Source: Schmidtea polychroa (taxonomy: Eukaryota). Taken from it: a stretch of DNA of 64,000 nt. A model generated the notes under the pieces. That model worked only from the letters and a program-made list of their open reading frames with translations. It was not told the origin of the DNA and did no database searches. The first letter of the stretch is position 1; each line of letters opens with the position of its first letter. Position numbers and translations under genes: made by a program. Shown piece by piece: positions 6,653-34,504 of this stretch. The stretch is from the NCBI GenBank assembly GCA_044892525.1, contig CM097885.1:62001-126000 (forward strand), read 5' to 3'.

Positions 6653-6725
6653 GCCATTATAGCGGAGTGGGAATAGGCTTCAATTTTATCACCGGGAGTA
6701 CCGGGTTCAATTTTCGATTTTGGTC
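6653..6725 (+). ncRNA. tRNA-like Pol III unit 1
   Basis: A box TAGCGGAGTGG at tRNA position 8, B-box-like GGGTTCAATT, 73 nt, followed by a T run. No convincing anticodon arm. Confidence 0.45.
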
Positions 6726-6924
6726 AATTTTTTTCGATATTTTTTTTTCAAAGGAATCTGATTCAGCGTACTGACTTTAGTATATATTTAAATTTTCAGA
6801 TGGATCTGAGTGGTAGTTGTCGAGAAAATGAATAATTAATTATTAATAGTAGGTAGATAGTAGCCTACGGGTTCCCAACTCATTTTTTTGCTTTCAGGGA
6901 TTTTGTTCCAAATTTTTTTTTTAT

Positions 6925-7470
6925 CACACTATAGTGAGGGGGTCTCGATGGTCCTGGGATTTTCAATACAAAAAATTTTTTTCAATACAAAAATCCGACT
7001 ATCAATAAAAAAGCATAGAATTTTCAGACTATAGTGAGGGGGTCTCGATGGTCCTGGGATTTTCAATACAAAAAATTTTTTTCAATACAAAAATCCGACT
7101 ATCAATAAAAAAGGATAGAATTTTCAGACTATAGTGAGGGGGTCTCGATGGTCCTGGGATTTTCAATACAAAAATCCGACTACCACTAAAAAAGCATGGA
7201 ATTTTTCACACTATAGTGAGGTGAGTCTCCTTGGTCCTGAGAAATAGGTGGTCTACACTAAAAAAGCATGGTAATTTAAGGTCTCAGGATATTTTCAATA
7301 CAAAAAGCTGGTCTACACTAAAAAAGCATGGTAATTTAAGGTCTCAGGATATTTTCAATACAAAAATCCGACTATCACTAAAAAAGCATGGATTTTTCTA
7401 GGTCAATTAAGGTGGGTCTCCTTGGTCCTGAGAATTTCAATAGACAAAGGTGGTCTACACTAAAAAACGC
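6925..7470. repeat. Subterminal tandem repeats of B (ACTATAGTGAGGGGGTCTCGATGGTCCTGGGATTTTCAATAC-type units)
   Basis: Several variable-length units; recur in every B arm. Confidence 0.85.
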
Positions 7471-7479
7471 GGTAAATTT

Positions 7480-8390
7480 TTTAAAATTACAGTAAATTAT
7501 GGGTCTAAAAATTGAATTACAGTAAATTATGGACTAAGATTTTTAAATTACAGTAAATTATGGTCCAAATTTTTCAATTAAAGTAAATTATGGTTCAAAT
7601 TTTTCAAATAAGGTAATTATGGTCCTAAAAAATTAAATAACAGTAAATTATGGCTCAAATTTTTAAATTAAATTAAATAATGGTTCTAAAAAATTAAATT
7701 AAAGTAAATTATGGCTCAAATTTTCAAATAAGGTAATAATGGTCCTAAAAAATTAAATTACAGTAAATAATGGTTCTAAAAATTAAATTAAAGTAAATTA
7801 TGGTTCTAAAATATTAAATTACAGTAAATTATGGTCCAGATTTTTCAATTAAAGTAAATAATGGTCCAAATTTTTGAATTAAAGTAAATTTAAGTTCTTA
7901 AAAATTAAATTACAGTAAATAATGGTCCAAATTTTTAAATTAAGTAATCAATGGTAAAAAATTTTAAATAAGTAAATTAAAGTAATAATTTTTAAATAAG
8001 TAAATTAAAGTAATGTAATAAGTAAATTAAAGTAAGATTTTAAAATTTATTAACAAAAAGTTGAAGGTGTTTGAGAATTGAAATTTTTTAATGGAAATTT
8101 TTATGAAATATTTTTTTAAGTAATTTTTAATGGAAATTTTTATGAAATATTTTTTTAGGTAATTTTTAATGGAAATTTTTATGAAATATTTTTTTAGGTA
8201 ATTTTTAATGGAAATTTTTATGAAATAATTTTTTAAGTAATTTTTAATGGAAATTTTTATGAAATATTTTTCAATGATAATTTTAGATGGAAATTTTTAT
8301 GAAATATTTTTCAATGATAATTTTAGATGGAAATTTTTAAGATAATTTTTAATGAAAATTTTTATGAAATATTTTTCAAAGACAAATTTT
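7480..8390. repeat. B internal minisatellites: ~30-bp AAATTACAGTAAATTATGG units, then ~39-bp GGAAATTTTTATGAAATATT units
   Basis: Direct reading of the periodic units. Confidence 0.85.
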
Positions 8391-8399
8391 AATAATAAT

Positions 8400-9450
8400 T
8401 CAACAACAAACCAACAACTTAGTACCAACAACCAGTAACTTATGAACATGTATTAACAACCAGATACCTACAACTAGTTACTAACAACCAGTTACCTGAT
8501 ACCAGATACCTACAACTAGATACCTACAACTAGTTACCTGATACCAACTACTAACAACCACCTACCCATTAACTAGCTACAACCAGCTAACAACTAGACA
8601 CCACGTACAAAATAACTCTCAAACAACCAAGTACTTACAACTAATTACCAGATACCAAGTACTATCAACCAGCTTACAACCTGATACCAACAACTAACAA
8701 CCAACTACCAAGTACTTACAACTAGATACTAACAACCAGTTACCTGATACCAAGTACCTACAATTAGATACCACGTACTAAAAAACTCTCAAACAACCAA
8801 GTACCTACAACTAATTACCAGATACCAAGTACTATCAACCAGCTAACAACCTGATACCAACTACTCACAACCAGATAACAACTAACAACCAGATACCAAG
8901 TACTTACAACTAGTTACTAACAACTAGCTACCAACTACTAAGTACTAACAACCAACATCAACTAGGTACTAAGCATTATCAACCAAGTACTAACAACTAG
9001 ATACCTAGTTACTAACAACCCGCTAACAACTAACAACTAGATACCAAGTACCAGTAAATTACGAACATGTATTAACAACCAGATACCTACAACTAGTTAC
9101 CTGATAGCAACCAACTAGCTACCAACTACTAAGTACCTACAACCAACATCAACCAGGTACTAAGCATTAATTACCAACTACTAAGTACCTACAACCAACT
9201 AACAACCACCTACCAAGTACTAAGCATTATCAACCAACTACTAAGTACCTACAACCAACTAGCTACCACCTACAACTAGATACTAACAACCAGTTACCAA
9301 CTACTAAGCATTAATTACCTACAACTAGTTACTAACAACTAGATACCAAGTACATACAACCAGACACTAAGCATTATCAACCAAGTACTAACAACCAAGT
9401 ACAAGATACCTAGTACTGTCAACTAGATACCAAACACTTACAACCAGATG
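8400..9450. repeat. Strand-biased A/C-rich cryptic repeat block of B
   Basis: Shuffled short words (CAACTAG, ATACC, AAGTACT, AACAACC). Mirror copies near 30525-31975 and 47580-48670; direct copy near 36620-37670. Confidence 0.85.
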
Positions 9451-9817
9451 ACCACATGAAATTATTGGTTAAATATGAAAATAAGGGTTATAATTAGTTG
9501 TTTAGTAAATTATGGTGTAAAATTAAGTAATAAAGCATAAATAGGTAAATTAAGGATAAGTAAATTAAAGTTAAAAAATTAAATTAAAGTTAATTAAGGT
9601 CCAAATTTTAAAAATAAGTAATCAATGTTCTAAAAAATTAAATTAAAGTTAAATAAGTAAATTAAAGTAATAATTTTTAAAGAATTTAATTAAAGTAATA
9701 ATTTTTAAATAAGTAATGTAATAAGTAAATTAAAGTAAGATTTTTAATTTTATTATCAAAAGATTGAATAACCACCAACTTTTTTGAGAAATGTAATTTA
9801 TAATGAAAATTTAAATG

Positions 9818-9868
<51 letters not shown>

Positions 9869-11291
9869 TAATAATAATTCAACAGTTACCAACAATCGGT
9901 TACTGATTATTTTTTAACTAGGTGCTAACAAATACTTACAACTAGATACCACGTACTAACTAACTCTCAAACAACCAGATACTTACAACTAACTACTAAA
10001 TATTCTTCACTGTATTTTATGAAATGCTTTTTAAATTAATATTTTTTATACAGCTTCTATAATAATTTTAATTACAATCAGTAGAAAAACCTTTTCAAAA
10101 TGTCTAAATTTAACAAAAATGTTGATTTTCATCAAAAAACCACAACTCAACCACTTTAAAACACCACGTGGAATTCAAAATAATTACAATGAAAGACTAA
10201 TGAATTCTAATTTACAAAACATTCTTCTTTTAAATGATAACTACTGACTTATTATTGCAAAGTAAAAATCACATTCAATAAATACTTATTATTGATCAGT
10301 TTTATTATATATACTCTGAGTTTATCCGACAGGATGTTTTGACCCCCTAAGGGTACAGGTCGTAAGGGTATTAGTCGTAAGGGTACTGGTCGTAAAGGTA
10401 CTAGTCGTAGGGGTATTGGTAACACTTAACCACAACCTACCCATTAACTAGCTACTAAGTACTAACCACTAGATTTCAAACAACAACTACTAACAACCAC
10501 CATCAAAACCCATCGAGAAATTAACAAATATCAACCTACAACTATATAACAATCAGTAAACAACACTGTACCAACTACCAAATACAAGAAACCAACAACT
10601 TAGTACCAACAATCAACTAACAACACATAAAAATAATAGCAATTAAATACAAAATATTCTTCATCGCATACACTATTTTCTTATCAAAATCTAAAAAGTC
10701 AATCAGATACCAACTACCAAGTACCAAGTACTAACAACCAACTACCTAGAACCAACAACTATGTACTAACAAATTGATCTTTAAAAGCAAATACTCTTCA
10801 CTTGAAAAATTGGATGAAAAATTATTTGAACTCAAGGCATCAATAACTTGGTAAAAATTGATTAAATAATTGTAAAAATTTAAATTATTCAAAATAAATA
10901 TCATAAAAATTTAATTAATGGACAAGAAAAAATTCTAATCATCCAATAAATAAAAAAAAATGCTGATCATTCAAGTTGAATCAACTAAGATAATAAATTA
11001 ATAAGATAAGATCTAGTAGATAATTGATTAAGATTGAATAAATTAATTTAAATAAAATAAAATTTAATTATTTTTGTAAAAGTAATACATGTACTCAAAT
11101 TGATTGACTGATTTCTCAATATATTCAAAAAAAATCAGTATAAATTCATTACAATTATCAAAGTCAGCAATCTACAATAAAAATAATTATCATAAAATTC
11201 CAAAAGAGACTAGATAACTAATGATAACATCTAATAAACCAGTAAATTTATTTAAATGACAATAATTGGTATATCCTAGTGAATTCTCCAA

Positions 11292-11745
11292 AGTAGTGAA
11301 TAGTAAGGACTCCAGGACACTTTCAAGGTCATCCCAATGTCCAGATCAAATATAGGTCAATCGAATCATTTTTTTTTTAATTAACATTTTATTTAATTAC
11401 TTCTTTTTAATTTTTTTTTTTTTTTTTTTTTTCATTTTAATTTTATTAATTAATTATTTTATTATGTTTTATTTTAATTTATTACATTTAATTAATTTAT
11501 TAGTTTATTAATATTTTATTTTAATTACTTACGCTATTTAATTATTATTATTATTATTATTATTTTTTTTTTTTTTAATTAATTTATTTATTTTTTAATT
11601 TTATTTAATTACTTCTATTTATTTTTTTTTTCTTTTTAATTTTCTTAATTAATTATTTTATTATGCTTTTATTTTAGTATTATTTTATTATTTTATTATT
11701 TTATTTATTATTATTATTTTTTTTTATTTTTTTATTTTTTTTTTA

Positions 11746-11776
<31 letters not shown>

Positions 11777-12289
11777 TTTTTTTTTTTATTTTTTTATTTT
11801 TTTTTAATTTTACATTTACATTATATTCTAACAAGAGGTAAATTATAACGATAATATTTCAATTTGAATAAAATTTTAATTAGTAATTATTCAATTTGAA
11901 TAAATTTTAATTAGAAATTATTTAATTTATTATAAAATAAAACGCTGAGTTAATTTTAGATAAACTGGATATTAATATTTCGGAAAAAATAAATAAATAA
12001 ATAAAATAAACACAAAAATAATATTTCTTACTTGAAACTAATTATCTAAATTAATTGGACAAATGAATAATTAAATGATAAAACACATTTTAATTAACTA
12101 AGTCAAACAATTCACAATATATATTTTATTATTCACATAAATTTAATTGTTAAAGTGCTTGTTTCGATTTGCATTCATTTCTAGACATAGCAGTTGCAAT
12201 ATGCATTTGGCGAATCTTATAGTGACCGTAGGCATAACTTTCATTACAATTGTACCAATACCTTTTATCGTCCAAACATTGGAGAGCTC
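11292..12289. mobile_element. Terminal fragment of element C including the last ~45 codons of polB
   Basis: Begins AGTAGTGAATAGTAAGG; direct copy of ~15641-16596; switches to B sequence at GAGCTC/ACGGC. Confidence 0.85.
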
Positions 12290-15200
12290 ACGGCTTGTTA
12301 TGTAATAAACTAGTTTAAATTACATATCCTCTCCACTTATATTCCTCCAATTCTCTATTTTTCACTAATTAATCACTAATATCCATCGATTTTCCACTAT
12401 TTAATCATTTGTATCCCCTCAATTTTCCATTAATTATTCACTTATGACCCCCCCCCACTCCGGATATTTAATCAATTATATTTCGCCGATTTTGATTAAT
12501 TATTCACTTCCCCACAAATATTTGTTTTAAAAGTTTTTATGAATTTTAAATAAATTCAATTAATATATTTCCATTCTTATCAACTTTCTTCTTATCTATG
12601 CCCATTCAATGATCCATTAATGAATTATTCTACCAATTATTTTCACCCATTTGAATTTATCATCGAGTAATTTCCTCACTTTAATGAAGATTCTTACCAC
12701 CTTCATTGTTAATTTTATCAAAGTTTAAAGAATATTTCTCTTTACATTGCTTACCACTTTAGAATTTTTATCGAAATTTATGATAATTTTACTGATTCAA
12801 TGAAGAATGAGTTAATTAATATATACTCTGAGTTTATCCGACAAAATATTCTGTCCCCCTATGGGTATTGCTCACAAGGGTACTACTCACATTCAACATG
12901 TCGCAAGGGTACTGATCATTTAATGCTTTTATTTGAATGATTATTTAGGCAAATTTGATGTTTAAGGCATTCATTGATAATTTTTAGAGTTGATGGTTTT
13001 AGTAAATATTCAAGTAAATTTCTATAATTTTTGTGAATTTTTATGAATTTTTTGTGGATTTTTATCATTCTTGTGAATTTCTATCATTTTTGTGAATTTT
13101 TATGAATTTTGTGAATTTCCATTATTTTCATGAATTTCCGTAATTTTTTGTGAATATGCGTAATTTTTGTAGATATCTATCATTTTCATGGATTTCTAAC
13201 ATTTTTGCAAATTTCATGTTTATTGAATGAATATTTAATAATTTAAAGTTAGTTCTAAGATAAATTTAATTAATTTCTTGATAATTGGATGTATTTTTAA
13301 TTTTAAATAAAAATTTATTTTAATGAGGTTAATAATTAAAGTTTGTACAATAATCAAGTGATAGGATAAATTTTTATGAGGATATTGAATAATTTTCTAA
13401 GAATTTCATGTTGACTGATTAAAAGTTTTAATGGTGATAAATTTAATTGATAAATTTAGTTAATTTCTTGATAATTAGTGGTATTTTATTGAATAGTTTT
13501 TAAATAAAAATTAATTTCATTGACAATTAGGTTAATAATTAAGTGATAGAATAAATTTTTGATGATAACTTTGTAATATATTTGACTAGATAATTTTTTT
13601 CAATAATTTTCTAAGAATATTTATCAATGACTTTAAATTTACTTGATAATTATTGTAGGATATACAGAAATTTAGTTTGCTGTTATTGCTTGAAAATGAT
13701 TGGTTGAATCGATGAAGAATTATGATCAATCAATATATATCATCTCCAGTATTTGATGGTAAATATTTGTAGAAAATTTTAGTAAATTTTGATCTTTTAG
13801 TGGGCTCTTATTATTTAGCTTCTAAATTATTTCAATGGAAGAATGCCTGGTGTCTTTAACAATTTATGAAAATTCATACTTTTTGAAGTTCTCTAAGGAT
13901 ATTAAGAGGATTGATATATATTAAAGGGTTCAAGTGGGTGGAATCTTTAGGGAAATTAAGGGATATAATCGGATAGATGTTTAAAAGGGTAGAAATATTT
14001 GCTGAGAGATCGGATAAGATGGGATATTATCGATTAGATTTAATGAGAGATGGGAATATATGATTTTTAAAGGGATATAGTCGGTTAGATTTAATGAGAG
14101 ATCGGTTAAGATGGGATATTGTTGGTTAGATTTAATGAGAGATCGGTTAAGATGGGGAAAATATGATCTTTTAAGGGGATATAGTCGGTTAGATTTAATG
14201 TGAGATGGGTTAAGATGGGAATATATTATTGTAAGGGAGATATAGTCGGTTGCTTTTAATGAGGGAAGGGTTTCGATGGGAATATATGATTTTTTAAGGG
14301 TGATGTTGGTAAAATATCAATGTTTTTTAAGGAAATTGCAATACATTAGTCAGTTATGAATCAATAATAATTATATCGTTTTATTAGGTTGTGATTAATG
14401 CACAGTAAATTAATTTAGAACAATGTTTTATTAAGTAGGGATAATGATCGATTTACTTGGTTTTGACAATGAAATCTTTACAGATAATTGGGATTGATAT
14501 CAACTTTAATTTATTTTTATCTTTATTTAGGCGGAGAATGACAAAAGTTTAGAAATATGGACTTAAAACATCGACTTAATAAAATTGATCTTTATTGGAA
14601 GAAATCTTGATTTTAATTAGTAATTAAATCGGTTGAATATTGGTAAAAATGATCATTTGAAGAAATATATTTTATTGAATGGATAAATTTAATCTTTTAA
14701 TGGGACCTAGTCAGTTATATTTATTTTAAATTTCGAGTACAGTGATTAACAAAAAGTTAATTATAACCAGTTTTATCAATAGTGAAACATGTATGATAAT
14801 AGGAATTAAAGTTAGAATTATAGTCATTTAAAGGGGAGTTTAAGCAATCTTATTAGTCTGAGGGGAATATATGATCTTTAACAAGTACTTATCATTAAAA
14901 TATCAATCTTAAAAGATAGAGTTATTTCAGGGAAATTTGATGCTTTTTAGATGATTTTAGTGAAATATTTGTAATAATATGAATTAAGGGTAGAAATATA
15001 GTCATTTAAGGGATTTTAAGGAATCTTGTTAGTTTGAGGTAAATATATGATCTTTAACAAGTATTTATCATTACAATACTAATCTTTACATATTGATATA
15101 TTTGGGAGGAAATGAGAAATTGGAGAATTCACTAGGATATACCAATTATTGTCATTTAAATAAATTTACTGGTTTATTAGATGTTATCATTAGTTATCTA

Positions 15201-15640
15201 GTCTCTTTTGGAATTTTATGATAATTATTTTTATTGTAGATTGCTGACTTTGATAATTGTAATGAATTTATACTGATTTTTTTTGAATATATTGAGAAAT
15301 CAGTCAATCAATTTGAGTACATGTATTACTTTTACAAAAATAATTAAATTTAATTTTATTTAAATTAATTTATTCAATCTTAATCAATTATCTACTAGAT
15401 CTTATCTTATTAATTTATTATCTTAGTTGATTCAACTTGAATGATCAGCATTTTTTTTTATTTATTGGATGATTAGAATTTTTTCTTGTCCATTAATTAA
15501 ATTTTTATGATATTTATTTTGAATAATTTAAATTTTTACAATTATTTAATCAATTTTTACCAAGTTATTGATGCCTTGAGTTCAAATAATTTTTCATCCA
15601 ATTTTTCAAGTGAAGAGTATTTGCTTTTAAAGATCAATTT
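12288..15640. repeat. Inner right-arm segment of B
   Basis: Same sequence and orientation as ~43282-46637; contains GATGGG/TCGGTTAGATTTAATGAG repeats near 13990-14300. Confidence 0.85.
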
Positions 15641-16455
15641 GTAGTGAATAGTAAGGACTCCAGGACACTTTCAAGGTCATCCCAATGTCCAGATCAAATA
15701 TAGGTCAATCGAATCATTTTTTTTTTTTTTAATTAACATTTTATTTAATTACTTCTTTTTAATTTTTTTTTTTTTTTTTTTTCATTTTAATTTTATTAAT
15801 TAATTATTTTATTATGTTTTATTTTAATTTATTACATTTAATTAATTTATTAGTTTATTAATATTTTATTTTAATTACTTACGCTATTTAATTATTATTA
15901 TTATTATTATTATTTTTTTTTTTTAATTAATTTATTTATTTTTTAATTTTATTTAATTACTTCTATTTATTTTTTTTTTCTTTTTAATTTTCTTAATTAA
16001 TTATTTTATTATGCTTTTATTTTAGTATTATTTTATTATTTTATTATTTTATTTATTATTATTATTTTTTTTTTATTTTTTATTTTTTTTTTTATTATTT
16101 TTTTTTTTTTTAATTTTACATTTACATTATATTCTAACAAGAGGTAAATTATAACGATAATATTTCAATTTGAATAAAATTTTAATTAGTAATTATTCAA
16201 TTTGAATAAATTTTAATTAGAAATTATTTAATTTATTATAAAATAAAACGCTGAGTTAATTTTAGATAAACTGGATATTAATATTTCGGAAAAAATAAAT
16301 AAATAAATAAAATAAACACAAAAATAATATTTCTTACTTGAAACTAATTATCTAAATTAATTGGACAAATGAATAATTAAATGATAAAACACATTTTAAT
16401 TAACTAAGTCAAACAATTCACAATATATATTTTATTATTCACATAAATTTAATTG

Positions 16456-20431: not shown

Positions 20432-20454
20432 TATATAAGTTAAATTAAAAGTTT

Positions 20455-22305: not shown

Positions 22306-22374
22306 GTTTTTTCTCTCTCTTTTTCTCTCTTTTCTCTTTGTTCGATTGGGATTTAAGTGTAACCATGTATAGGC

Positions 22375-23120
22375 AGAATTTAATTCTCTACAAAATGGCT
22401 CAATTACAATTTTAGTTTGTCGCTTTGTGTGTAATACACACATGTTTTTACGATAAATTTGTATTTTTCGCGCGGTTAACGTAATTTTCTTGGATTTTTA
22501 TTCATATATTATATAGATAAAATTTAATTTTCTATAAAATGGCTCAATTACAATTTTAGTTTGTCGCTTTGTGTGTAATACACACATGTTTTTACGATAA
22601 ATTTGTATTTTTCATACAGTTAACGTAATTTTCTTAGGATTTTATTCATATAATATATAGATAAAATTTAATTTTCTATAAAATGGATTGATTAGAAATT
22701 ATGTATCTTGTTCTGTGTGTAATACACACATGTTTTTAAGATAAATTTGTATTTTTCATATAGTTAACGTAATTTTCTTAGGATTTTATTCATATAATAT
22801 AGATAAAATTTAATTTTCTATAAAATGGATTGATTAGAAATTATGTATCTTGTTTTTTTGTGTAATACACACATGTTTTTATGATAAATTTGTATTTATT
22901 ATACGTTAACGTAATTTCCTTGAATATTTATTCATATATTATATAGATAAAATTTAATTTTCTATAAAATAGCTTGATTAAAAATTATGTCTTGTATGTT
23001 GTGTGTAATACACACATGTTTTTTACGATAAATTTGTATTTTTCATACAGTTAACGTAATTTCCTTGTATATTTATTCATATATTATAGAGATAAAATTT
23101 AATTTTCTATAAAATGGATT
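22375..23120. repeat. ~144-bp tandem repeat, mirror copy
   Basis: Reverse complement of 21165-21910. Confidence 0.9.
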
Positions 23121-23689
23121 GATCTAGAGTTTAAAATGTTGTATTATTTTATTACTTTGTTGCAATATTTTTATAATCTTATAACATTTTGCTTAAATAT
23201 TTTACATCTGGTGAAATATTTCCGAAATATGTTATTACTTTGTTGTAATTTACTGAAAGACTTCACAATTTATTACAATATTCTTTTTAATTTGTTGTCC
23301 GTCTTCGAAATAATGTATTGATTTGTCCCAATTAACATCATTATTTTATTACTTTGTTGCAATATTTTTATTATTTTAGTTACAATTTGATAAATATTTT
23401 ACAACTTTGTTGAAATTTTCTGAAATATGTTACTACTTTGTTGTAATATTTTCTAATCTTGTTACAATTTGTTTAAATATTTTACAACTGTTGAAAATTT
23501 ATCTGAAATATGTTATTATTTTGTTACAATTTTATGAAAACGTTATTACTGTTTTGCAATTTGATGAAAAATGATATTACTTTGTGGGTTCATCACATTA
23601 TTTTTATTAAATTATTATGAAAATGTTAAATAAGTCAACTTTAGCATCAAAATGTGTTTTAAAATATATTGAACTTTTAAAATACTGTA

Positions 23690-23830
23690 ACACATTTATT
23701 TTTCCTACCCCTTCCTTGATTTTGATTGGTCAGAATATATTTATTTTTCCTACCCCTTCCTTGATTTTGATTGGTCAGAATTTAATCATGTGTAATATAT
23801 AAGCAGTAACTTTTCAAATGTTTGTCATTT
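23690..23830 (+). promoter_or_regulatory. Predicted Pol II promoter of C polB
   Basis: ATTGG at 23725 and 23770, TATATAAG at 23796, TCATT with its A at 23827 (31 nt from the TATA start). Confidence 0.6.
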
Positions 23831-23853
23831 AAACTTTTAATTTAACTTATATA

Positions 23854-26800
23854 AGTGAATAATTTTTTATTCTCTATCTAATATTAATGATTATTTTCTT
23901 TTAGTGAACGGATGCAGTTTATATAAATTTTGTATTGCCGAAAGTCATGAAGATGTGGAGAACTGTAAATCAGTTACATCATCATATTTCAAGATAAATG
24001 ACTCTACCTTATCGGGTTACATATGTCCGGAATGTCTCATTATATCACCAGGTAGGTGGTTAATGTTTGTACGACAACACGGACACCATCTTAGAAGATT
24101 CGAAGAAACGAAGAGCAGGATGATCACTAAAAGTAATACTCTTTCTACTATTAACAATTATTAATTTTTTATAGTACAACCGAAAATGAATACATCATAC
24201 GATCCTAAGCAGATTAAAGAATATGTTACAAGTTATGTTATTTAAGTTGTTTAATATTAATTATAAATATAGTTAGACAAAACTCTGGCACCACAAAACG
24301 AAAGTCAATATTTTACGGAAATGGAGACTCTAACATACAATTGTGTCCACGTCGGGAGTCTGACTTAAATGGTTCTCGTGTTGAATTGACAAGCGATGTA
24401 TCTGCAATTAATTCTCCTGACATTGTTGTTTCAGATTGTCTCATCAGAGAAATAGAAGATCATATTCAACGAATGGGGACAGTAAAAATCCAATTTGGAC
24501 TTTGTGCAGAGTTTATCAAAGAGGATGGTGAAATTAAAAAACGGTGTTTGTCGAATAAAGCAATTACAATGTCATCTTCATTTATTAATGATGGAATTGA
24601 AAAATTAAAAGAAAAGTTGGAGAAATACACTCAACAAAGTAGTGGGTGGAGAATTCATAAAATATTAGAAGTTACTATGATTTTAACTAAATTATCAGAC
24701 ATAATACATGTATCTGGTAAGTTTATTTACATTATTATATATATAAATCAAGATATTTACTTAGGTTCAAGTTACATTAAAACGCCAAATTACCTGAAAA
24801 ACTGCCAGGCTTTAGTTAATGTTCAAAATAATGATCAATTCTGCTTTTTATATAGCATACTGGCCGTATTACATTATGATGACATAAAACACCACAGAGA
24901 AAGAGTAATGAAATATAATTTAAGTGGTAATATATATTTATATCATTCTAAAAATATATATATTTAGAGTTAAAATGGAAATCAGATTGGTTTCCAATGA
25001 AGTTGGTTAACATTTGCCAATTTGAGGCAATGAATCCTAATCTAGCGATCAATGTTCTCAAATATAATAAAGATCCAATTAAACAAAAAACTAATGATAT
25101 TTTCAAGAATCCGTTCGTTGACTTGGTATATAGAAGTACTTCGACGGGATGTCAATTATATCTCTTATTGATTGAAGAAGGTAATATTTCTTTTAATCAT
25201 TAAAAATATTAACTAAATTTTAGAATTAAATTATCATTTTTTGGCTGTAACTAATCTCGATCGACTGCTCAATTACAGAGATAGAGTAGAAGGAGTCAGA
25301 ATCCAATCACATTGGTGTCATACGTGTCTTCATGGGTTTCAAAAACGTCCTGCTTTTGAAAGACATATAGGTCTTTGTAGGAAGAATGTGGAGCGGACGA
25401 CTCTATACTCAATGCCAGAGAATAAATATATCGAATTTAAAGACTGGAGTAAAACTATAAAACAGCAGTTTGTTGTCTACGCGGACTTTGAATCAATATT
25501 ACCTCTAGATGACAAGCACTTCCAAAAACATGAGCCGATTGCATCTGAATTTGTGCTTCTTCATCAAGGTTGTCCGATTCGAAATGAAACATTTGTTGGG
25601 AAAAACTGTATCATTCAGTTTATACAAGCATTGGATGATATAGCTACAGACATAGTTTATCCGTGGTATAAAATTAATGGATCGAAGGAAATGATGGAAC
25701 TCACTTGGGAACAGCAGGAAGAATTTACGAATCAAACTCATTGCTACCTTTGTAAAAAGATTATCAATATACCTGTTCGGGATCATGATCATTTTACCGG
25801 TCAATATCTCGGAGCAGCGTGTCAAGATTGTAATTTGGCTAGAAGAATCAATCCGTCTTTACCTGTTGTATTTCATAATCTTCGTGGATATGACATTCAT
25901 CATATATTAAAATATGCAATTGGAAAATTCCCCGATTGGAATTTAATTGTTATTCCTCAATCAACAGAAAAGTTTCTCACACTTACAGTGACATCGAAAG
26001 GCAGAAGAATTAGATTCATTGATTCTTTACAATTTTTAAATAGCAGCTTGGCAAATTTATCAAAAAACTTGCCACGTCTTCCACTTACTTCAAAGATTTT
26101 CAATTCGCATATAATAACTGGTAAAGGCATATTTCCTTATGATATGGCTACATCAATGGATGTTTTACAGTCAATAACAGAATTACCACCGATTTGGGAG
26201 GGAGTTAGTCAAGAAGATTATATACATGCAAATCGAATCTGGCGACAATACAACTGTGAGACACTGCTAGATTACATGCTAGTATATCTCAAGTTGGATG
26301 TTTTTCTGTTGGCCGATGTTTTTGAAGCTTTCAGAGAAAAAACATTTGACGAAGATGGACTTGAGGCTCTATCGTTTGTTTCCATACCCGGATTAAGTTG
26401 GGCATCAGCTATTAAACAGTTACCTGAACCAGTAGAACTTATTCAAGATCCAGAGCTTTACCGTTTATTTGAAGCTGGTATTCGTGGTGGAATGACATTT
26501 ATCAACAAACATCATGTTGAAGCTGATGAATCAACACAAATGTCATACCTAGATGTTAATAATTTATATGGATGGGCGCTGTCGCAAAAACTTCCTGTTG
26601 GTGAATTTAGATGGATAAATGATCAGACTGAAATGAATGGTATTGTTGAAAGATGTGCAAATGGGGATAAGTTTGATGGAGATCTTGGATATGTTCTAGA
26701 GGTTGACATCGTCATTCCTGATAGTATACAAGATAAACTAGATGATTTACCTATAGCTCCTGAGCTTTGTTATCCACCTGGTAGTAAAGTTGAAAAGCTG

Positions 26801-27829
26801 TTGTTAACTCATGAGCCTAAGAAAAACTATGTAGTTAATGGTAGAGTTTTGACAGAGTGGTTGAGTTACGGCGCAAAAGTCACAAAAGTTAATCGTGCTG
26901 TAGAATTCAAGCAAGTGGCTATTTTCAAAGGCTATATTGATTACAATACCAAAATGAGAGCAGCTAGTACAGATTCGTTTCAGCGAGATTATTATAAGTT
27001 AAAGAACAACAGTTTATACGGTAAAACTGTGGAAAACTTGAAGAAACGTATAAATTTGAGATTATGCAGCAAAAGCAAAAGATTGATAACTTATTGTAGT
27101 AATCCTATGTTTCGTCGTAGCATCAAGATTGCGGATGATCTCATTGCTGTTATACTCAATAAGGAAATTGTGTGTTTAGATAGACCAATGTATATTGGAC
27201 AAACCGTACTTGATTTATCCAAACTTCGCATGTACCAGTTTCAATATAAAGAACTACAGAGTTATAGAGAAGAATTCAATTGTCAAATTAATATCGTAGC
27301 CGGTGACACAGATTCCTTCTTTTTAGAGTGTAAAAATGTAGATTTACGCTTACAACTATATCCAAAAATGATTGCCGATGGGCTCCTAGATACTTCAAAT
27401 TATCCAGTGACTGATCCATTGTTCTCAGATAAAATTTGTTCGGTAATCGGGAAATTCAAGGATGAGAATAAAGGAAATCAATATAAAGAATGGGTGTTTC
27501 TTCGACCCAAGTGCTACTCACTCCAAGGCGATAAAAACACTCTAAAAGCCAAAGGAATAAGACTTACAAACTCTAATCTTACACATGAAGCCTATAAAAA
27601 AGTGTATACTGATGGTGGAACAGTGAGCATCCCACAAAAAAGAATAGGAAGTGTCAATCATCAGTTGTATACTTTCATGACAGAAAAACGAGCTCTCCAA
27701 TGTTTGGACGATAAAAGGTATTGGTACAATTGTAATGAAAGTTATGCCTACGGTCACTATAAGATTCGCCAAATGCATATTGCAACTGCTATGTCTAGAA
27801 ATGAATGCAAATCGAAACAAGCACTTTAA
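23854..27829 (+). CDS. polB: Protein-primed family B DNA polymerase with endonuclease VII-like insertion; predicted 7 coding exons, 1236 aa
   Basis: Motifs YADFE, FHNLRGYD, YLKLDV, YLDVNNLYG, KLKNNSLYGK, AGDTDS, and RDHDHFTG..AACQDCN. Predicted GT-AG introns 23855-23904, 24133-24174, 24232-24272, 24717-24764, 24927-24967, 25181-25223 give one open frame. Joins 4-6 align with the intronless D PolB. Confidence 0.9.
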
Positions 27830-30108
27830 CAATTAAATTTATGTGAATAATAAAATATATATTGTGAATTGTTTGACTTAGTTAATTAAAATGTGTTTTA
27901 TCATTTAATTATTCATTTGTCCAATTAATTTAGATAATTAGTTTCAAGTAAGAAATATTATTTTTGTGTTTATTTTATTTATTTATTTATTTTTTCCGAA
28001 ATATTAATATCCAGTTTATCTAAAATTAACTCAGCGTTTTATTTTATAATAAATTAAATAATTTCTAATTAAAATTTATTCAAATTGAATAATTACTAAT
28101 TAAAATTTTATTCAAATTGAAATATTATCGTTATAATTTACCTCTTGTTAGAATATAATGTAAATGTAAAATTAAAAAAAAATAAAAAAATAAAAAAAAA
28201 AAAAATAAAATAAAAAAAAAAAAAATAAAAAATAAAAAAAAAATAAAAAAATAAAAAAAAATAATAATAATAAATAAAATAATAAAATAATAAAATAATA
28301 CTAAAATAAAAGCATAATAAAATAATTAATTAAGAAAATTAAAAAGAAAAAAAAAATAAATAGAAGTAATTAAATAAAATTAAAAAATAAATAAATTAAT
28401 TAAAAAAAAAAAAAATAATAATAATAATAATAATAATTAAATAGCGTAAGTAATTAAAATAAAATATTAATAAACTAATAAATTAATTAAATGTAATAAA
28501 TTAAAATAAAACATAATAAAATAATTAATTAATAAAATTAAAATGAAAAAAAAAAAAAAAAAAAAATTAAAAAGAAGTAATTAAATAAAATGTTAATTAA
28601 AAAAAAAATGATTCGATTGACCTATATTTGATCTGGACATTGGGATGACCTTGAAAGTGTCCTGGAGTCCTTACTATTCACTACTTTGGAGAATTCACTA
28701 GGATATACCAATTATTGTCATTTAAATAAATTTACTGGTTTATTAGATGTTATCATTAGTTATCTAGTCTCTTTTGGAATTTTATGATAATTATTTTTAT
28801 TGTAGATTGCTGACTTTGATAATTGTAATGAATTTATACTGATTTTTTTTGAATATATTGAGAAATCAGTCAATCAATTTGAGTACATGTATTACTTTTA
28901 CAAAAATAATTAAATTTAATTTTATTTAAATTAATTTATTCAATCTTAATCAATTATCTACTAGATCTTATCTTATTAATTTATTATCTTAGTTGATTCA
29001 ACTTGAATGATCAGCATTTTTTTTTATTTATTGGATGATTAGAATTTTTTCTTGTCCATTAATTAAATTTTTATGATATTTATTTTGAATAATTTAAATT
29101 TTTACAATTATTTAATCAATTTTTACCAAGTTATTGATGCCTTGAGTTCAAATAATTTTTCATCCAATTTTTCAAGTGAAGAGTATTTGCTTTTAAAGAT
29201 CAATTTGTTAGTACATAGTTGTTGGTTCTAGGTAGTTGGTTGTTAGTACTTGGTACTTGGTAGTTGGTATCTGATTGACTTTTTAGATTTTGATAAGAAA
29301 ATAGTGTATGCGATGAAGAATATTTTGTATTTAATTGCTATTATTTTTATGTGTTGTTAGTTGATTGTTGGTACTAAGTTGTTGGTTTCTTGTATTTGGT
29401 AGTTGGTACAGTGTTGTTTACTGATTGTTATATAGTTGTAGGTTGATATTTGTTAATTTCTCGATGGGTTTTGATGGTGGTTGTTAGTAGTTGTTGTTTG
29501 AAACCTAGTGGTTAGTACTTAGTAGCTAGTTAATGGGTAGGTTGTGGTTAAGTGTTACCAATACCCCTACGACTAGTACCTTTACGACCAGTACCCTTAC
29601 GACTAATACCCTTACGACCTGTACCCTTAGGGGGTCAAAACATCCTGTCGGATAAACTCAGAGTATATATAATAAAACTGATCAATAATAAGTATCTATT
29701 GAATGTGATTTTTACTTTGCAATAATAAGTCAGTAGTTATCATTTAAAAGAAGAATGTTTTGTAAATTAGAATTCATTAGTCTTTCATTGTAATTATTTT
29801 GAATTCCACGTGGTGTTTTAAAGTGGTTGAGTTGTGGTTTTTTGATGAAAATCAACATTTTTGTTAAATTTAGACATTTTGAAAAGGTTTTTCTACTGAT
29901 TGTAATTAAAATTATTATAGAAGCTGTATAAAAAATATTAATTTAAAAAGCATTTCATAAAATACAGTGAAGAATATTTAGTAGTTAGTTGTAAGTATCT
30001 GGTTGTTTGAGAGTTAGTTAGTACGTGGTATCTAGTTGTAAGTATTTGTTAGCACCTAGTTAAAAAATAATCAGTAACCGATTGTTGGTAACTGTTGAAT
30101 TATTATTA

Positions 30109-30156
<48 letters not shown>

Positions 30157-33100
30157 CATTTAAATTTTCATTATAAATTACATTTCTCAAAAAAGTTGGT
30201 GGTTATTCAATCTTTTGATAATAAAATTAAAAATCTTACTTTAATTTACTTATTACATTACTTATTTAAAAATTATTACTTTAATTAAATTCTTTAAAAA
30301 TTATTACTTTAATTTACTTATTTAACTTTAATTTAATTTTTTAGAACATTGATTACTTATTTTTAAAATTTGGACCTTAATTAACTTTAATTTAATTTTT
30401 TAACTTTAATTTACTTATCCTTAATTTACCTATTTATGCTTTATTACTTAATTTTACACCATAATTTACTAAACAACTAATTATAACCCTTATTTTCATA
30501 TTTAACCAATAATTTCATGTGGTCATCTGGTTGTAAGTGTTTGGTATCTAGTTGACAGTACTAGGTATCTTGTACTTGGTTGTTAGTACTTGGTTGATAA
30601 TGCTTAGTGTCTGGTTGTATGTACTTGGTATCTAGTTGTTAGTAACTAGTTGTAGGTAATTAATGCTTAGTAGTTGGTAACTGGTTGTTAGTATCTAGTT
30701 GTAGGTGGTAGCTAGTTGGTTGTAGGTACTTAGTAGTTGGTTGATAATGCTTAGTACTTGGTAGGTGGTTGTTAGTTGGTTGTAGGTACTTAGTAGTTGG
30801 TAATTAATGCTTAGTACCTGGTTGATGTTGGTTGTAGGTACTTAGTAGTTGGTAGCTAGTTGGTTGCTATCAGGTAACTAGTTGTTAGTAACTAGTTGTA
30901 GGTATCTGGTTGTTAATACATGTTCGTAATTTACTGGTACTTGGTATCTAGTTGTTAGTTGTTAGCGGGTTGTTAGTAACTAGGTATCTAGTTGTTAGTA
31001 CTTGGTTGATAATGCTTAGTACCTGGTTGATGTTGGTTGTTAGTACTTAGTAGTTGGTAGCTAGTTGTTAGTAACTAGTTGTAAGTACTTGGTATCTGGT
31101 TGTTAGTTGTTATCTGGTTGTGAGTAGTTGGTATCGGGTTGTTAGCTGGTTGATAGTACTTGGTATCTGGTATTTAGTTGTAGGTACTTGGTTGTTTGAG
31201 AGTTTTTTAGTACGTGGTATCTAGTTGTAGGTACTTGGTATCAGGTAACTGGTTGTTAGTATCTAGTTGTAAGTACTTGGTAGTTGGTTGTTAGTTGTTG
31301 GTATCAGGTTGTAAGCTGGTTGATAGTACTTGGTATCTGGTTGTTAGTTGTTAGCGGGTTGTTAGTAACTAGGTATCTAGTTGTTAGTACTTGGTTGATA
31401 ATGCTTAGTACCTGGTTGATGTTGGTAGTTAGTACTTAGTAGTTGGTAGCTAGTTGTTAGTAACTAGTTGTAAGTACTTGGTATCTGGTTGTTAGTTGTT
31501 ATCTGGTTGTGAGTAGTTGGTATCAGGTTGTTAGCTGGTTGATAGTACTTGGTATCTGGTAATTAGTTGTAGGTACTTGGTTGTTTGAGAGTTATTTAGT
31601 ACGTGGTATCTAGTTGTAGGTACTTAGTATCAGGTAACTGGTTGTTAGTATCTAGTTGTAAGTACTTGGTAGTTGGTTGTTAGTTGTTGGTATCAGGTTG
31701 TAAGCTGGTTGATAGTACTTGGTATCTGGTAATTAGTTGTAAGTACTTGGTTGTTTGAGAGTTATTTAGTACGTGTTATCTAGTTGTTAGCTGGTTGTAG
31801 CTAGTTAATGGGTAGGTGGTTGTTAGTAGTTGGTATCAGGTAACTAGTTGTAGGTATCTAGTTGTAGGTATCTGGTATCAGGTAACTGGTTGTTAGTAAC
31901 TAGTTGTAGGTATCTGGTTGTTAATACATGTTCATAAGTTACTGGTTGTTGGTACTAAGTTGTTGGTTTGTTGTTGAATTATTATTAAAATTTGTCTTTG
32001 AAAAATATTTCATAAAAATTTTCATTAAAAATTATCTTAAAAATTTCCATCTAAAATTATCATTGAAAAATATTTCATAAAAATTTCCATCTAAAATTAT
32101 CATTGAAAAATATTTCATAAAAATTTCCATTAAAAATTACTTAAAAAATTATTTCATAAAAATTTCCATTAAAAATTACCTAAAAAAATATTTCATAAAA
32201 ATTTCCATTAAAAATTACCTAAAAAAATATTTCATAAAAATTTCCATTAAAAATTACTTAAAAAAAATATTTCATAAAAATTTCCATTAAAAAATTTCAA
32301 TTCTCAAACACCTTCAACTTTTTGTTAATAAATTTTAAAATCTTACTTTAATTTACTTATTACATTACTTTAATTTACTTATTTAAAAATTATTACTTTA
32401 ATTTACTTATTTAAAATTTTTTACCATTGATTACTTAATTTAAAAATTTGGACCATTATTTACTGTAATTTAATTTTTAAGAACTTAAATTTACTTTAAT
32501 TCAAAAATTTGGACCATTATTTACTTTAATTGAAAAATCTGGACCATAATTTACTGTAATTTAATATTTTAGAACCATAATTTACTTTAATTTAATTTTT
32601 AGAACCATTATTTACTGTAATTTAATTTTTTAGGACCATTATTACCTTATTTGAAAATTTGAGCCATAATTTACTTTAATTTAATTTTTTAGAACCATTA
32701 TTTACTTTAATTTAAAAATTTGAGCCATAATTTACTGTAATTTAATTTTTTAGGACCATAATTACCTTATTTGAAAAATTTGAACCATAATTTACTTTAA
32801 TTGAAAAATTTGGACCATAATTTACTGTAATTTAAAAATCTTAGTCCATAATTTACTGTAATTCAATTTTTAGACCCATAATTTACTGTAATTTTAAAAA
32901 ATTTACCACGTTTTTTAGTGTAGACCACCTTTGTCTATTGAAATTCTCAGGACCAAGGAGACCCACCTTAATTGACCTAGAAAAATCCATGCTTTTTTAG
33001 TGATAGTCGGATTTTTGTATTGAAAATATCCTGAGACCTTAAATTACCATGCTTTTTTAGTGTAGACCAGCTTTTTGTATTGAAAATATCCTGAGACCTT

Positions 33101-33700
33101 AAATTACCATGCTTTTTTAGTGTAGACCACCTATTTCTCAGGACCAAGGAGACTCACCTCACTATAGTGTGAAAAATTCCATGCTTTTTAGTGATAGTCG
33201 GATTTTTGTATTGAAAATCCCAGGACCATCGAGACCCCCTCACTATAGTGTGAAAAATTCCATGCTTTTTTAGTGGTAGTCGGATTTTTGTATTGAAAAT
33301 CCCAGGACCATCGAGACCCCCTCACTATAGTCTGAAAATTCTATGCTTTTTTATTGATAGTTATTGATAATTTTTTGTATTGAAAATCCCAGGACCATCG
33401 AGACCCCCTCACTATAGTCTGAAAATTCTATGCTTTTTTATTGATAGTCGGATTTTTGTATTGAAAAAAATTTTTTGTATTGAAAATCCCAGGACCATCG
33501 AGACCCCCTCACTATAGTGTGATAAAAAAAAAATTTGGACCAAAAATCCCTGAAAGCAAAAAAATGAGTTGGGAACAATTGCGTAATAAAAATTTGGGAA
33601 CAAACCCCCCCCCCCGGGGGGGGTAATTGTTCCCGTAGGCTACTATCTACCTACTATTAATTTCATCAATAAATAGTCACACATTAACAACTTATTTTAT

Positions 33701-33774
33701 ATTGAGTATAGCTTAGTGGTAATAGCACTCGACTGCATTGCCAATACCAATGGGTTCAAATCTCATTTCGGTCA
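33701..33774 (+). ncRNA. tRNA-like Pol III unit 2 (second copy 50117-50190)
   Basis: A box TAGCTTAGTGG, T arm ATGGG-TTCAAAT-CTCAT, ends can pair with G-U wobbles, followed by a T8 run. Confidence 0.55.
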
Positions 33775-33944
33775 TTTTTTTTCAAATTTTTTTTTAACGA
33801 AATATTGATCAGCATACTCGATTTAGTACTTGTACAAATTTTTAAGGAGATTGGTCAACGGCAACTCTTGGAAATTTAAGATCAAAAACGTTTTAACTTA
33901 AGCTACCAAAAATTAATATATCCAATAAAAAAATATTTATAAAA

Positions 33945-34214
33945 ATGGATGAGTTAAAAGAAAGAATGAGAAATGAATTGAATGAAGTTAAACATAAGAG
34001 AATGAAAAGAAGAGAAGAAGAACCATTAGAATACATCTAAGAGTTGATGGTAGATAATGAAAAGTATCGACATTTTTATATGAAGGCTGTAGATGTTGCT
34101 GATATAAGATTGAAGAAAATGAAACAATTACAGGAAAGAGTTAAAGAACTTGAATCGATTATTTATAGTCTAAAAAATAACAAAAATCCAATCCTAGATA
34201 GCGCAGTGGGCTAG
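33945..34214 (+). pseudogene. Small charged coiled-coil-like ORF with an internal stop (second copy from 50361)
   Basis: MDELKERMRNELNEVKHKRMKRREEEPLEYI*ELMVDNEKYRHFYMKAVDVADIRLKKMKQLQERVKELESII; TAA at 34038-34040. Confidence 0.45.
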
Positions 34215-34263
34215 ACCGGCACCGTGGTTCAAATGGATAGCGGTTCAAATCCTAACTGTGGTT
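34191..34263 (+). ncRNA. tRNA-like Pol III unit 3 (second copy 50607-50679)
   Basis: A box TAGCGCAGTGG at 34199, B box GGTTCAAATCC at 34242, T-rich tail. Confidence 0.55.
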
Positions 34264-34430
34264 AGTTTATTTTTCAACATAAAATAATATTAAAAATTTG
34301 AAAATAATAGTGTGGGTATCTTAGATTTATATTTTATTTTATTTATTTTTATTTTATTTTATTTTATTTTATTTATTTTATTTATTATTTTATTTTTTAA
34401 ACATAAATATGAAAAAATAAATATTGAAAC

Positions 34431-34504
34431 GGGTGATGGTGGCGAACCGGTAATTATCGCCACCTGTCTTTCGAACACCCCCGGATCGATCCCGGTAATG
34501 TGCA
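34431..34504 (+). ncRNA. tRNA-like Pol III unit 4 (second copy 50847-50920)
   Basis: A-box-like TGGCGAACCGG within a GGTGGCGA/TCGCCACC stem; T arm CCGG-ATCGATC-CCGG; weak terminator. Confidence 0.45.

Follow-up and report, generated by a model that had tools for sequence, protein, structure and literature searches.

The window, the whole 64,000-nt stretch of DNA analysed here, contains the right arm of an element that we designate Polinton A (Table 1). Polintons, or Mavericks, are usually regarded as protein-coding virus-like transposons. Polinton A is ∼15 kb long, has well over a thousand copies in an AT-rich animal genome and carries Pfam domains of a double jelly-roll capsid (PF21738), a packaging ATPase (PF04665) and a retroviral-type integrase (PF00665); in the window, the two pieces of the capsid gene match PF21738 with E values of 1.5e-13 and 0.0028. 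At the right end, 10 of 12 copies stop at the same base and have unrelated flanks. The terminal 24-mer occurs in the genome 753 times in forward and 767 times in reverse orientation, and its facing pairs, 14.6-15.4 kb apart, fit inverted ends of Polinton A, the left part of which lies outside the window.

A second element, Polinton B, with a protein-primed polymerase B gene, terminal inverted repeats and a 6-bp target duplication, is nested within A. It is flanked on both sides by the duplication ATTAAT and stands outside the unit cluster proper. At all eight other loci compared, the sequence to the left of position 6848 continues directly into that at 33661, which gives the B-free junction. 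The stretch 33172-34928 recurs at 49592-51344 with 97.5% identity, and the last three of the four tRNA-like units reported in a preliminary description of this DNA do indeed reappear there, with A-box matches at 50125, 50615 and 50856.

Table 1. Features of the Polinton A right arm in the window
Feature	Position	Strand	Remarks
Major capsid protein gene of Polinton A	5310..6596	-	two ORF pieces, 5763-6596 and 5310-5621
Unit 1	6653..6726	+	A box TAGCGGAGTGG at 6660; B box GGTTCAATTTT at 6704; end GGTCA
Terminator-like T7 and T9 runs	6728..6748	+	directly 3' of unit 1
Tail motif of unit 1	6763..6782	+	TCAGCGTACTGACTTTAGTA; common to the unit 2 tail
Nested Polinton B	6849..33660	.	rearranged, with a pair of inverted polymerase B genes; insertion site between units 1 and 2
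Unit 2	33701..33774	+	A box TAGCTTAGTGG at 33709; B box GGTTCAAATCT at 33753; tRNA-derived
Tail motif of unit 2	33809..33828	+	TCAGCATACTCGATTTAGTA; downstream of unit 2
ORF89	33945..34214	+	lysine/glutamate-rich; last codons and stop inside unit 3
Unit 3	34191..34265	+	A box TAGCGCAGTGG at 34199; B-box-like GGTTCAAATGG and perfect GGTTCAAATCC at 34242
Unit 4	34431..34506	+	8-bp hairpin GGTGGCGA/TCGCCACC; A-box-like TGGCGAACCGG (34440) within the hairpin
Structured stretch	34507..34735	+	predicted multi-branch fold; directly after unit 4
Terminal hairpin	34755..34805	+	A-rich loop, then TTTT; partial decay in window copy
Second copy of units 2, 3 and 4	50117..50922	+	offset +16416; local duplication including the same B/A junction
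Last 173 nt of Polinton A	51345..51517	+	terminates in ...CCACACTACT

Reading of the sequence confirmed all four units at the places first given for them. The claim that they form a cluster of ∼1 kb on one strand once B is excised at ATTAAT is borne out by the intact reference copy L003, where all four are read from the + strand and span positions 1307-2345 (1039 nt, or 1.04 kb), in the interval that separates the capsid gene from the right end of A. The same uninterrupted layout was found in all 36 of the other Polinton A copies examined.

We searched for box pairs under a strict definition, which requires an A box matching TRGCNNAGTGG without mismatch and, 32-33 nt further on, a B box that departs from its consensus at no more than two positions. 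Five pairs were found in the 64-kb window, all of them in units 1-3 and the duplicate, whereas 100 block shuffles averaged 0.18 and never exceeded 2. Unit 4 falls into a weaker class (two mismatches in the A box, one in the B box), which was seen six times compared with 0.05 in 40 shuffles; its B-box-like motif is GGATCGATCCC at 34483. The A and B boxes previously noted at tRNA spacing are therefore present in all four units, with a perfect A box in units 1-3 and weaker boxes in unit 4. The T-rich tails ascribed to all units hold for units 1-3, which are followed by runs of T5-T9: unit 2 by T8 and T9 at 33775-33795, and unit 3, which ends in TTTATTTTT, by T5 in the window copy and T9 in L003. 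Unit 4 has only TTTATTT on its 3' side and a TTTT later. The layout is that of a type-2 Pol III gene (A and B boxes ∼30-60 nt apart on one strand, with oligo-T downstream), and unit 4 conforms to it only with 2+1 mismatches and with its TTTT 17 nt downstream. Across copies, the boxes and a run of at least four T are retained in 32/35 (unit 1), 36/36 (unit 2), 28/36 (unit 3) and 24/29 (unit 4). The B box of unit 2 reads TCC in most other copies, and that of unit 3 has one mismatch in one subfamily.

None of the four units is a clean decoding tRNA. At default thresholds, ARAGORN reports no tRNA in the window, L003 or L061, and Rfam gives no match at gathering score in the window, in agreement with the earlier observation that no unit has a clean anticodon arm; when the ARAGORN thresholds are relaxed, unit 2 appears at 90% and unit 1 only at 80%. 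Against the Rfam tRNA model (RF00005, gathering cut-off 29 bits), the window copy of unit 2 reaches 21.9 bits and the L003 copy 26.7; with 32.4 bits, the L061 and L067 copies, which belong to a subfamily with a 9-bp insertion, are the only ones of these to exceed the cut-off. The model finds no match at E<=10 to unit 1 (111 nt searched) or to units 3 and 4 (searches of up to 341 nt), and apart from the tRNA match of unit 2 no Rfam family was matched, including the VA RNA family RF00102 at E<=10. On these scores, unit 2 alone is recognisably a tRNA, and its tRNA ancestry is established. It may resemble tRNA-Cys(GCA). As host tRNAs for comparison with the units, the genome search yielded only tandem arrays of tRNA-Lys(TTT) and tRNA-Arg(TCG). 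That the units are working tRNAs with which the element supports its own protein synthesis, a role proposed for the tRNAs of phages and polinton-like viruses, is scarcely credible. The passing score of unit 2 in one subfamily would fit such a role, but host tRNAs score 62-74 bits, ARAGORN at default finds no tRNA, unit 2 has non-standard pairs at three of five positions of the anticodon stem and at two to three in the acceptor stem, and a cloverleaf is absent from units 1, 3 and 4.

Units 1 and 2 are related to one another. Aligned together with their tails, they give a local score of 45, as against 11.1 +/- 1.6 (maximum 21) in 300 shuffles. The tails are identical at 34/55 positions and share the downstream motif pointed out in the preliminary description, which has three matches, only behind units 1 and 2, versus 0.03 expected. 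Judged from this alignment, the two units are diverged tandem duplicates (paralogues). All nine specified A-box positions and the first seven B-box positions are identical between them, and the sole two A-box differences sit on the two free positions; elsewhere, identity is 16/33 between the boxes and 12/34 in the 5' flank. Because all 16 specified box positions have been kept while the flanks have diverged, the comparison suggests that the promoter has been under constraint ever since the two copies arose.

This pattern bears on the idea that the units are inert passengers, that is, host tRNA genes or pseudogenes which the element captured, which then decayed and which spread with the expansion of a young family, their boxes persisting by chance or through earlier selection in the host. 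Polinton A is, by sequence identity, a young family: its copies are 94-99.5% identical to one another, so their sameness tells little about selection, and the nucleotide diversity of 0.004-0.05 over 36 copies, low throughout, is biased by the choice of copies and is not evidence of selection. Some copies (L067, L062 and L064) have lost unit 1 or ORF89, and partial relatives carry no units. These relatives are four partial loci among metagenome contigs with 46-51% capsid identity, in none of which the units were found, only one extending beyond 1 kb on the side in question; no capsid relatives were found among viral contigs. tRNA genes are, moreover, known passengers of polinton-like viruses and virophages (PMC12220804). 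We nevertheless regard a passenger origin without function as unlikely. With an inter-box identity of ∼48%, uniform divergence predicts ∼0.48^16 for the 16/16 box positions that were kept together with the terminator, all four units lie in the same orientation within 1 kb, and compensatory changes occur in the stretch that follows unit 4, as described below.

A different origin, in which the units go back to a dispersed tRNA-derived SINE whose heads inserted into a single ancestral Polinton A, is very improbable. It could account for the abundance of the unit 2 core (3251 in the genome, versus 2121 for unit 1, 1629 for the capsid and 1425 for ORF89) and for the 112431 first-look tRNA candidates in the genome. 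The units were found in Polinton A context at 8/8 loci, at 28/28 loci and at 8/8 further unit-2 sites, however, and the 36/36 sampled copies agree with the expectation that the units are confined to Polinton A and are not free SINE heads; the sample consists of perfect-match sites. The excess of unit 2 is compatible with derivatives that have internal deletions, such as L062 and L064. Furthermore, T7-T9 terminators directly follow the heads, whereas a SINE requires read-through into its body, and units 1 and 2 have non-tRNA tails in common, as expected of local duplicates. The units resemble tRNA-derived SINE heads in their tRNA origin, decayed stems and retained A and B boxes, and differ from them in having immediate terminators and no SINE body or tail.

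Downstream of unit 4 lies a structured stretch that goes beyond the preliminary description. In the window copy, the multi-branch part has a predicted folding energy of -75.7 kcal/mol (z -4.9), and the corresponding stretch of L003 gives z -5.9 on the + strand and -1.8 on the - strand. The terminal hairpin of L003 folds with -35.1 kcal/mol (z -5.7). The whole 356-nt stretch, at the head of which unit 4 stands (L003 2271-2626), reaches -133.7 kcal/mol, compared with -89.2 +/- 5.1 for shuffles (z -8.8), and the fold is better on the + than on the - strand in 4/4 copies; a control stretch of the right arm gives z -0.4. The predicted RNAs of unit 1 (z 0.36) and unit 3 (z -0.07) are not more stable than shuffles, and unit 4 alone gives z -0.93. 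A compensatory G-C to A-T change is found at the pair L003 2416/2467 in the multi-branch stretch, a G-C to A-T double change in the terminal hairpin is carried by 6/34 copies, and both of these shared double changes show G-T intermediates among the copies. Shared variants keep predicted pairing more often than they break it (7 to 3), as against 12 to 31 for rare variants (Fisher p 0.025), a comparison of small numbers in which the structure was predicted from one of the sequences tested; three shared variants do break predicted pairs of the unit 4 stretch. A TTTT at L003 2361-2364 sits inside the 356-nt candidate and could end Pol III transcription after ∼90 nt. An open reading frame on the - strand over unit 4 (ORF65) was rejected as coding, since copies carry 1-nt and 17-nt indels in it.

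Taken as a whole, the right arm of Polinton A may well be a block of Pol III-type non-coding RNA genes, a reading to which we give about an even chance (roughly 0.5). Units 1-3 would be remnants of tRNA genes that have lost the cloverleaf and retained the internal promoter and the oligo-T terminator. They would recruit host TFIIIC, TFIIIB and Pol III and yield non-decoding tRNA-like RNAs of ∼75-90 nt. Unit 4, with its weaker boxes, opens the 356-nt stretch, which has the predicted fold of a structured RNA and closes in a hairpin and a U run. We infer both that Pol III transcribes the units and that the element benefits from their RNAs or from the complexes bound to them, perhaps by modulating RNA-based responses of the host, by analogy with TMER and VA RNAs, or alternatively by keeping the capsid/ORF89 region accessible. 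The fuller proposal, that Polinton A encodes three short tRNA-like RNAs and a VA/EBER-like RNA of ∼350 nt from the unit 4 boxes, which together aid its persistence and multiplication in the germ line, for example by blunting RNA-based defence or silencing, is speculative and, in our view, unlikely.

tDNA and B-box clusters act as barriers in yeasts and mammals, and the box pairs could have a role at the DNA level only, as sites for TFIIIC or Pol III complexes that form a chromatin boundary or keep a patch open for the capsid and ORF89 promoters close to the end of the element, any RNA being a by-product. The capsid gene points away from unit 1, which precedes the divergent capsid ATG by 57 nt; unit 2 lies ∼170 nt upstream of ORF89, and unit 3 overlaps the ORF89 stop. 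ORF89 is open (89 or 98 aa) in 30/36 copies, with a premature TAA at 34038 in the window copy, and has no Pfam match and no homologue in our searches. This arrangement, together with units 1 and 3 retaining boxes and a T run with no stable RNA fold, speaks for a purely DNA-level role. Such a role is nonetheless quite improbable in our estimation, because it leaves unexplained both the terminators kept directly after the units and the strand-specific fold with compensatory changes after unit 4.

Under the reading as a block of RNA genes, the closest parallel would be the tRNA-like TMER cluster of murine gammaherpesvirus 68. As described in PMC4337559, one end of the genome of this virus carries a cluster of eight Pol III genes for tRNA-like RNAs that are not aminoacylated. 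The likeness lies in the grouping of multiple tRNA-like units of differing sequence, with internal A and B boxes and unusable as tRNAs, close to an end of linear dsDNA (PMC4337559). In the TMERs, pre-miRNA hairpins follow the tRNA-like part and precede the terminator, whereas Polinton units 1-3 meet their T runs at once and only unit 4 precedes structured sequence, its hairpins lying beyond a TTTT. The two clusters have no sequence relation, and the Polinton carrier is integrated and has an invertebrate-like host.

Adenoviruses belong to the same wide lineage as Polintons, with a double jelly-roll capsid and a protein-primed polymerase B, and adenoviruses and gammaherpesviruses are classic examples of viruses that use Pol III RNAs to manipulate the host. 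VA RNAs I and II (RF00102) are likewise made from virus-borne Pol III genes with internal A and B boxes, and the 356-nt stretch of unit 4 resembles them in being highly structured. They differ in that RF00102 finds no counterpart here, units 1-3 are ∼75 nt and tRNA-derived, and the structured candidate is about twice the length of a VA RNA and has an internal TTTT. The suggestion that the units are VA-RNA analogues is upheld in part, in that they are built into A and have a type-2 Pol III layout; as first worded it lacks support, the VA family being unmatched and units 1 and 3 folding like shuffles. A VA-like role is conceivable, on the predicted fold, for unit 4, which leads into the structured stretch. 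If the fuller proposal is correct, the Pol III RNA strategy of adenoviruses and gammaherpesviruses would extend to Polintons, and a cluster built into an element with thousands of copies would provide a testable link between Polintons and host Pol III, RNA sensing or chromatin control. Such units are unusual for a Polinton: a literature search for genes of the Pol III type in animal Polintons, whether for tRNA-like or for structured RNAs, found no report. Ordinary tRNA genes are reported in polinton-like viruses of protists. According to PMC12220804, a set of polinton-like virus and virophage genomes contains 558 predicted tRNAs, and tRNA flags appear in Figure 6 of PMC8502044, a further case among virophages and other mid-size dsDNA viruses. 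Those tRNAs are called as ordinary by ARAGORN or Rfam and are discussed as codon helpers; in contrast, 0/4 Polinton A units pass ARAGORN, and unit 2 alone passes Rfam, in one subfamily.

Targeting of Pol III genes by Polinton B, which would hint that unit 2 is occupied in vivo, was considered and rejected. No A box, B box or tRNA was found in 20 flanks of 200 nt around B copies, and none of these flanks lies in the unit cluster of A. Perfect 6-bp duplications flank 8 of 10 full-length copies of B.

Polinton A, the host element of the four tRNA-like units, runs uninterrupted in other loci across the site where Polinton B lies nested in the window. The sequence to the left of position 6848 joins 33661 directly in 8/8 other genomic loci, and both sides are present in all 28 of the loci L003–L030. 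In an intact A copy (locus L003), the four units therefore form a single cluster between the divergent capsid gene and the terminus of the element. The capsid ATG lies 57 nt from unit 1, which is on its upstream side, and unit 2 lies ∼170 nt upstream of ORF89, a small ORF between units 2 and 3. ORF89, for which neither a Pfam match nor a homologue was found, is open in 30 of 36 copies (89 or 98 aa, the longer version belonging to one subfamily and arising by read-on via a 1-nt insertion), and its final codons and stop are contained in the A-box region of unit 3. Beyond 34927, A extends 173 nt more to a common end in 8/8 other loci; this terminus, ...CCACACTACT, has the same end base and unrelated flanks in 10 of 12 anchor-located copies. 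The capsid protein of A is split over two ORF pieces, both of which match PF21738.

Features of the window (forward-strand coordinates) and of the intact Polinton A copy L003
Feature	Window	L003	Remarks
A genes	left 6.8 kb		packaging ATPase PF04665, rve integrase PF00665, double jelly-roll capsid PF21738
Capsid ATG		1242 (-)
Units 1–4		1307–2345
Unit 1	6653–6726 (+)
Polinton B	6849–33660		ATTAAT on either side
B polymerase B gene, first copy	16456–18873 (-)
G/C-rich centre of B inversion	near 22030–22060
B polymerase B gene, second copy	25412–27829 (+)
A sequence 3' of B	33661–34927		1267 nt
Unit 2	33701–33774 (+)
ORF89	33945–34214	1785–2054	lysine/glutamate-rich small ORF
Unit 3	34191–34265 (+)
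Microsatellite between units 3 and 4	34280–34400	2167–2268	AT-rich (TTTTA/TTTAT)n
Unit 4	34431–34506 (+)
Unit 4 + structured domain + hairpin		2271–2626
A terminus		2928
Second B-type copy	34928–50066		abuts A arm at 34928
Duplicate of A sequence 3' of B	50081–51344		identical B junction; part of local duplication
HMG-box genes (PF00505)	52198–57058		three tandem copies just past A's end
Duplicated pieces of A's terminal region	58475–58810		flank HMG-box gene copies
Third Polinton-type element	60536–63999 (-)		fragmented polymerase B gene

The genome was counted with 34-mer or 24-mer probes. At ≤3 mismatches the unit 2 core gave 3251 matches, the unit 1 core 2121, the capsid coding sequence 1629 and ORF89 1425, and the A terminal 24-mer gave 1520 at ≤2 mismatches. 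The terminal 24-mers form facing pairs 14.6–15.4 kb apart; A is therefore ∼15 kb in length and extremely abundant, which is extraordinary for an animal Polinton. As the surplus of unit 2 matches might conceal copies in different contexts, we examined eight unit-2 sites that have no perfect unit 1 nearby. All eight, which were sampled from perfect matches only and so leave a small gap among mismatched sites, are A copies of a 94–95% subfamily or internal-deletion derivatives, one without unit 1 (L067) and two without ORF89 (L062 and L064). In L062 the right arm, the end segment of A that carries the units, is joined to a distant inner part of the element. The surplus of unit 2 over the other A markers may be due to such internal-deletion derivatives.

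We searched for a perfect A box (TRGCNNAGTGG) followed 32–33 nt on by a B box (GGTTCRANNCC) with ≤2 mismatches. The window contains five such pairs, both strands counted, all at units 1–3 and their duplicate, compared with a mean of 0.18 expected from 100 composition-preserving shuffles; the weaker pair of unit 4 belongs to a class observed six times and expected 0.05 times. No comparable pair is present in B, in the left 6.6 kb of A or in the third Polinton fragment at the right end, from which A/B-box units are likewise absent. In L003, units 1–3 are followed directly by runs of T7–T9, and unit 4 by TTTATTT and then by TTTT 17 nt further. The tail motif that the preliminary description reported as shared holds up, with three matches compared with 0.03 expected. 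Copies with both boxes and the T run intact number 32 of 35 for unit 1, 36 of 36 for unit 2, 28 of 36 for unit 3 and 24 of 29 for unit 4. That the units are dispersed SINE heads, an alternative named in the preliminary description, is very improbable, because terminators sit directly behind the heads and the unit-2 sites examined all lie in an A or A-derivative context.

Within the window, ARAGORN finds no tRNA and Rfam nothing at gathering score. Unit 2 aligns end-to-end with the tRNA model, scoring 21.9 bits for the copy in the window, whose B box is mutated, and 26.7 bits in L003. In L061 and L067, which belong to a subfamily with nine extra bases before the A box, it exceeds the cut-off of 29 with 32.4 bits. 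This best-scoring subfamily has three non-standard pairs in the anticodon stem and two in the acceptor stem and is called by ARAGORN only at 90% thresholds; host tRNAs from the same genome score 62–74 bits. For units 1, 3 and 4, searches covering 111–341 nt produced no tRNA hit at E ≤ 10. On these scores and stem defects, unit 2 is tRNA-derived, and units 1, 3 and 4 have promoter geometry alone in common with tRNAs. None of the four looks able to decode, and the idea that they are working tRNAs, to which the above-threshold score of unit 2 might lend itself, is scarcely credible.

The copies of A are 94–99.5% alike, so sameness among them is uninformative, and the comparison of units 1 and 2 within the element is more telling. 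With their tails, these two units align with a local score of 45, compared with 11.1 ± 1.6 for 300 shuffles, and on this alignment they are diverged tandem duplicates. Identity is 12/34 in the 5' flank, 9/11 in the A box (both differences at the two free positions), 16/33 between the boxes, 8/11 in the B box (the first seven identical), 10/12 from the B box to the end and 18/25 in the T-run region. To judge by this pattern, promoter and terminator have been kept since the duplication and the former stems have drifted. The units might instead be inert passengers of a young expansion, a doubtful but possible reading that fits their absence from four partial relatives with 46–51% capsid identity, only one of which includes >1 kb on the relevant side. 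Capsid relatives nearer to A also exist, at 71–95% identity.

The 215 nt 3' of unit 4 have a predicted folding energy of −75.5 kcal/mol on the + strand, compared with −52.5 ± 3.9 kcal/mol for shuffles (z −5.9), but reach only z −1.8 on the − strand; the fold is better on the + strand in 4/4 copies. The window's own copy of the stretch has an identical fold (z −4.9); for a control segment from elsewhere in the arm, z is −0.4. The stretch is succeeded by a hairpin of 21 bp with an A-rich loop (z −5.7) and then by TTTT. Folded together with unit 4 and the hairpin, 356 nt in all, the domain reaches −133.7 kcal/mol (z −8.8). The structured stretch has no Rfam family match. In a covariation set of 34 copies, including six of an older subfamily added for the purpose, shared G–C to A–T double changes occur at two predicted pairs (L003 coordinates): at 2416/2467 in four copies, with G–T in six others, and at 2580/2612 in six copies, with non-pairing A–C in two others. 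Pairing is kept versus broken by 7 to 3 among shared variants and by 12 to 31 among rare ones (Fisher p 0.025), in a test with small numbers and a structure predicted from one of the tested sequences; three shared variants disrupt predicted pairs. Pol III transcription from unit 4 could stop after ∼90 nt at the TTTT at L003 2361–2364, which lies inside the 356-nt candidate.

We consider it most likely, with a probability of roughly 0.5, that the right arm of A would be a set of non-coding RNA genes of the Pol III type. A purely DNA-level role, in TFIIIC binding or as a boundary, would fit units 1 and 3, for which the predicted RNAs are no more stably folded than shuffled sequence, but is unlikely given its misfit with the terminators and the structured stretch. 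The preliminary description had proposed VA-RNA analogues or chromatin barriers: its units are confirmed and its interpretation is supported in part, but it had missed the structured stretch after unit 4.

Murine gammaherpesvirus 68 has eight non-aminoacylated tRNA-like Pol III genes clustered at the left end (PMC4337559). As described there, this cluster is the closest functional parallel to the units of A, which differ in that in the viral units pre-miRNA hairpins precede the terminator. The parallel with adenovirus VA RNA is looser, and the units do not qualify as VA RNAs. Polinton-like viruses and virophages are known to carry ordinary tRNA genes (PMC12220804; PMC8502044). Judged from search results, the literature on Polintons/Mavericks holds no report of animal Polintons with such units. 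By its sequence, the arm would be a variant of the virus-carried Pol III tRNA-like or structured RNA genes, here in an animal Polinton.

Within the arm, similarity to the metagenome relatives is confined to the microsatellite between units 3 and 4, where it is weak and of low complexity. A metagenome contig (L091) with a capsid relative (49% identity) contains, at 5436–5515 (-), a hairpin that matches Rfam mir-754 at E 2e-07. Its score of 48.6 bits falls short of the cut-off of 84; it might represent a small-RNA hairpin of a related element.

The 781-Mb assembly includes four very large contigs, and G+C of the window is ∼25%. A first-look search of the host genome returned 112431 tRNA-like candidates; in long tandem arrays (C4:76.658–76.669 Mb; C140, C333, C474), identical genes for tRNA-Lys(TTT) recur at a spacing of mostly 424 nt and those for tRNA-Arg(TCG) at one of 278 nt. 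There are roughly a thousand copies of A or more, and the 24-mer from the end of B has 1422 occurrences. The B copy in the window is a head-to-head rearranged form of 26.8 kb with two inverted copies of its protein-primed polymerase B gene; ordinary B copies have ends 11–28 kb apart, mostly 14–18 kb. B is inserted 40 nt 5' of unit 2; the idea that this reflects targeting of Pol III genes was tested and rejected. The HMG-box genes, each for a 192-aa protein with two HMG boxes, repeat with a period of 2141 nt and are 99.6–99.7% alike. The polymerase of the third, different Polinton-type element shares, by eye, about half its residues with that of B.
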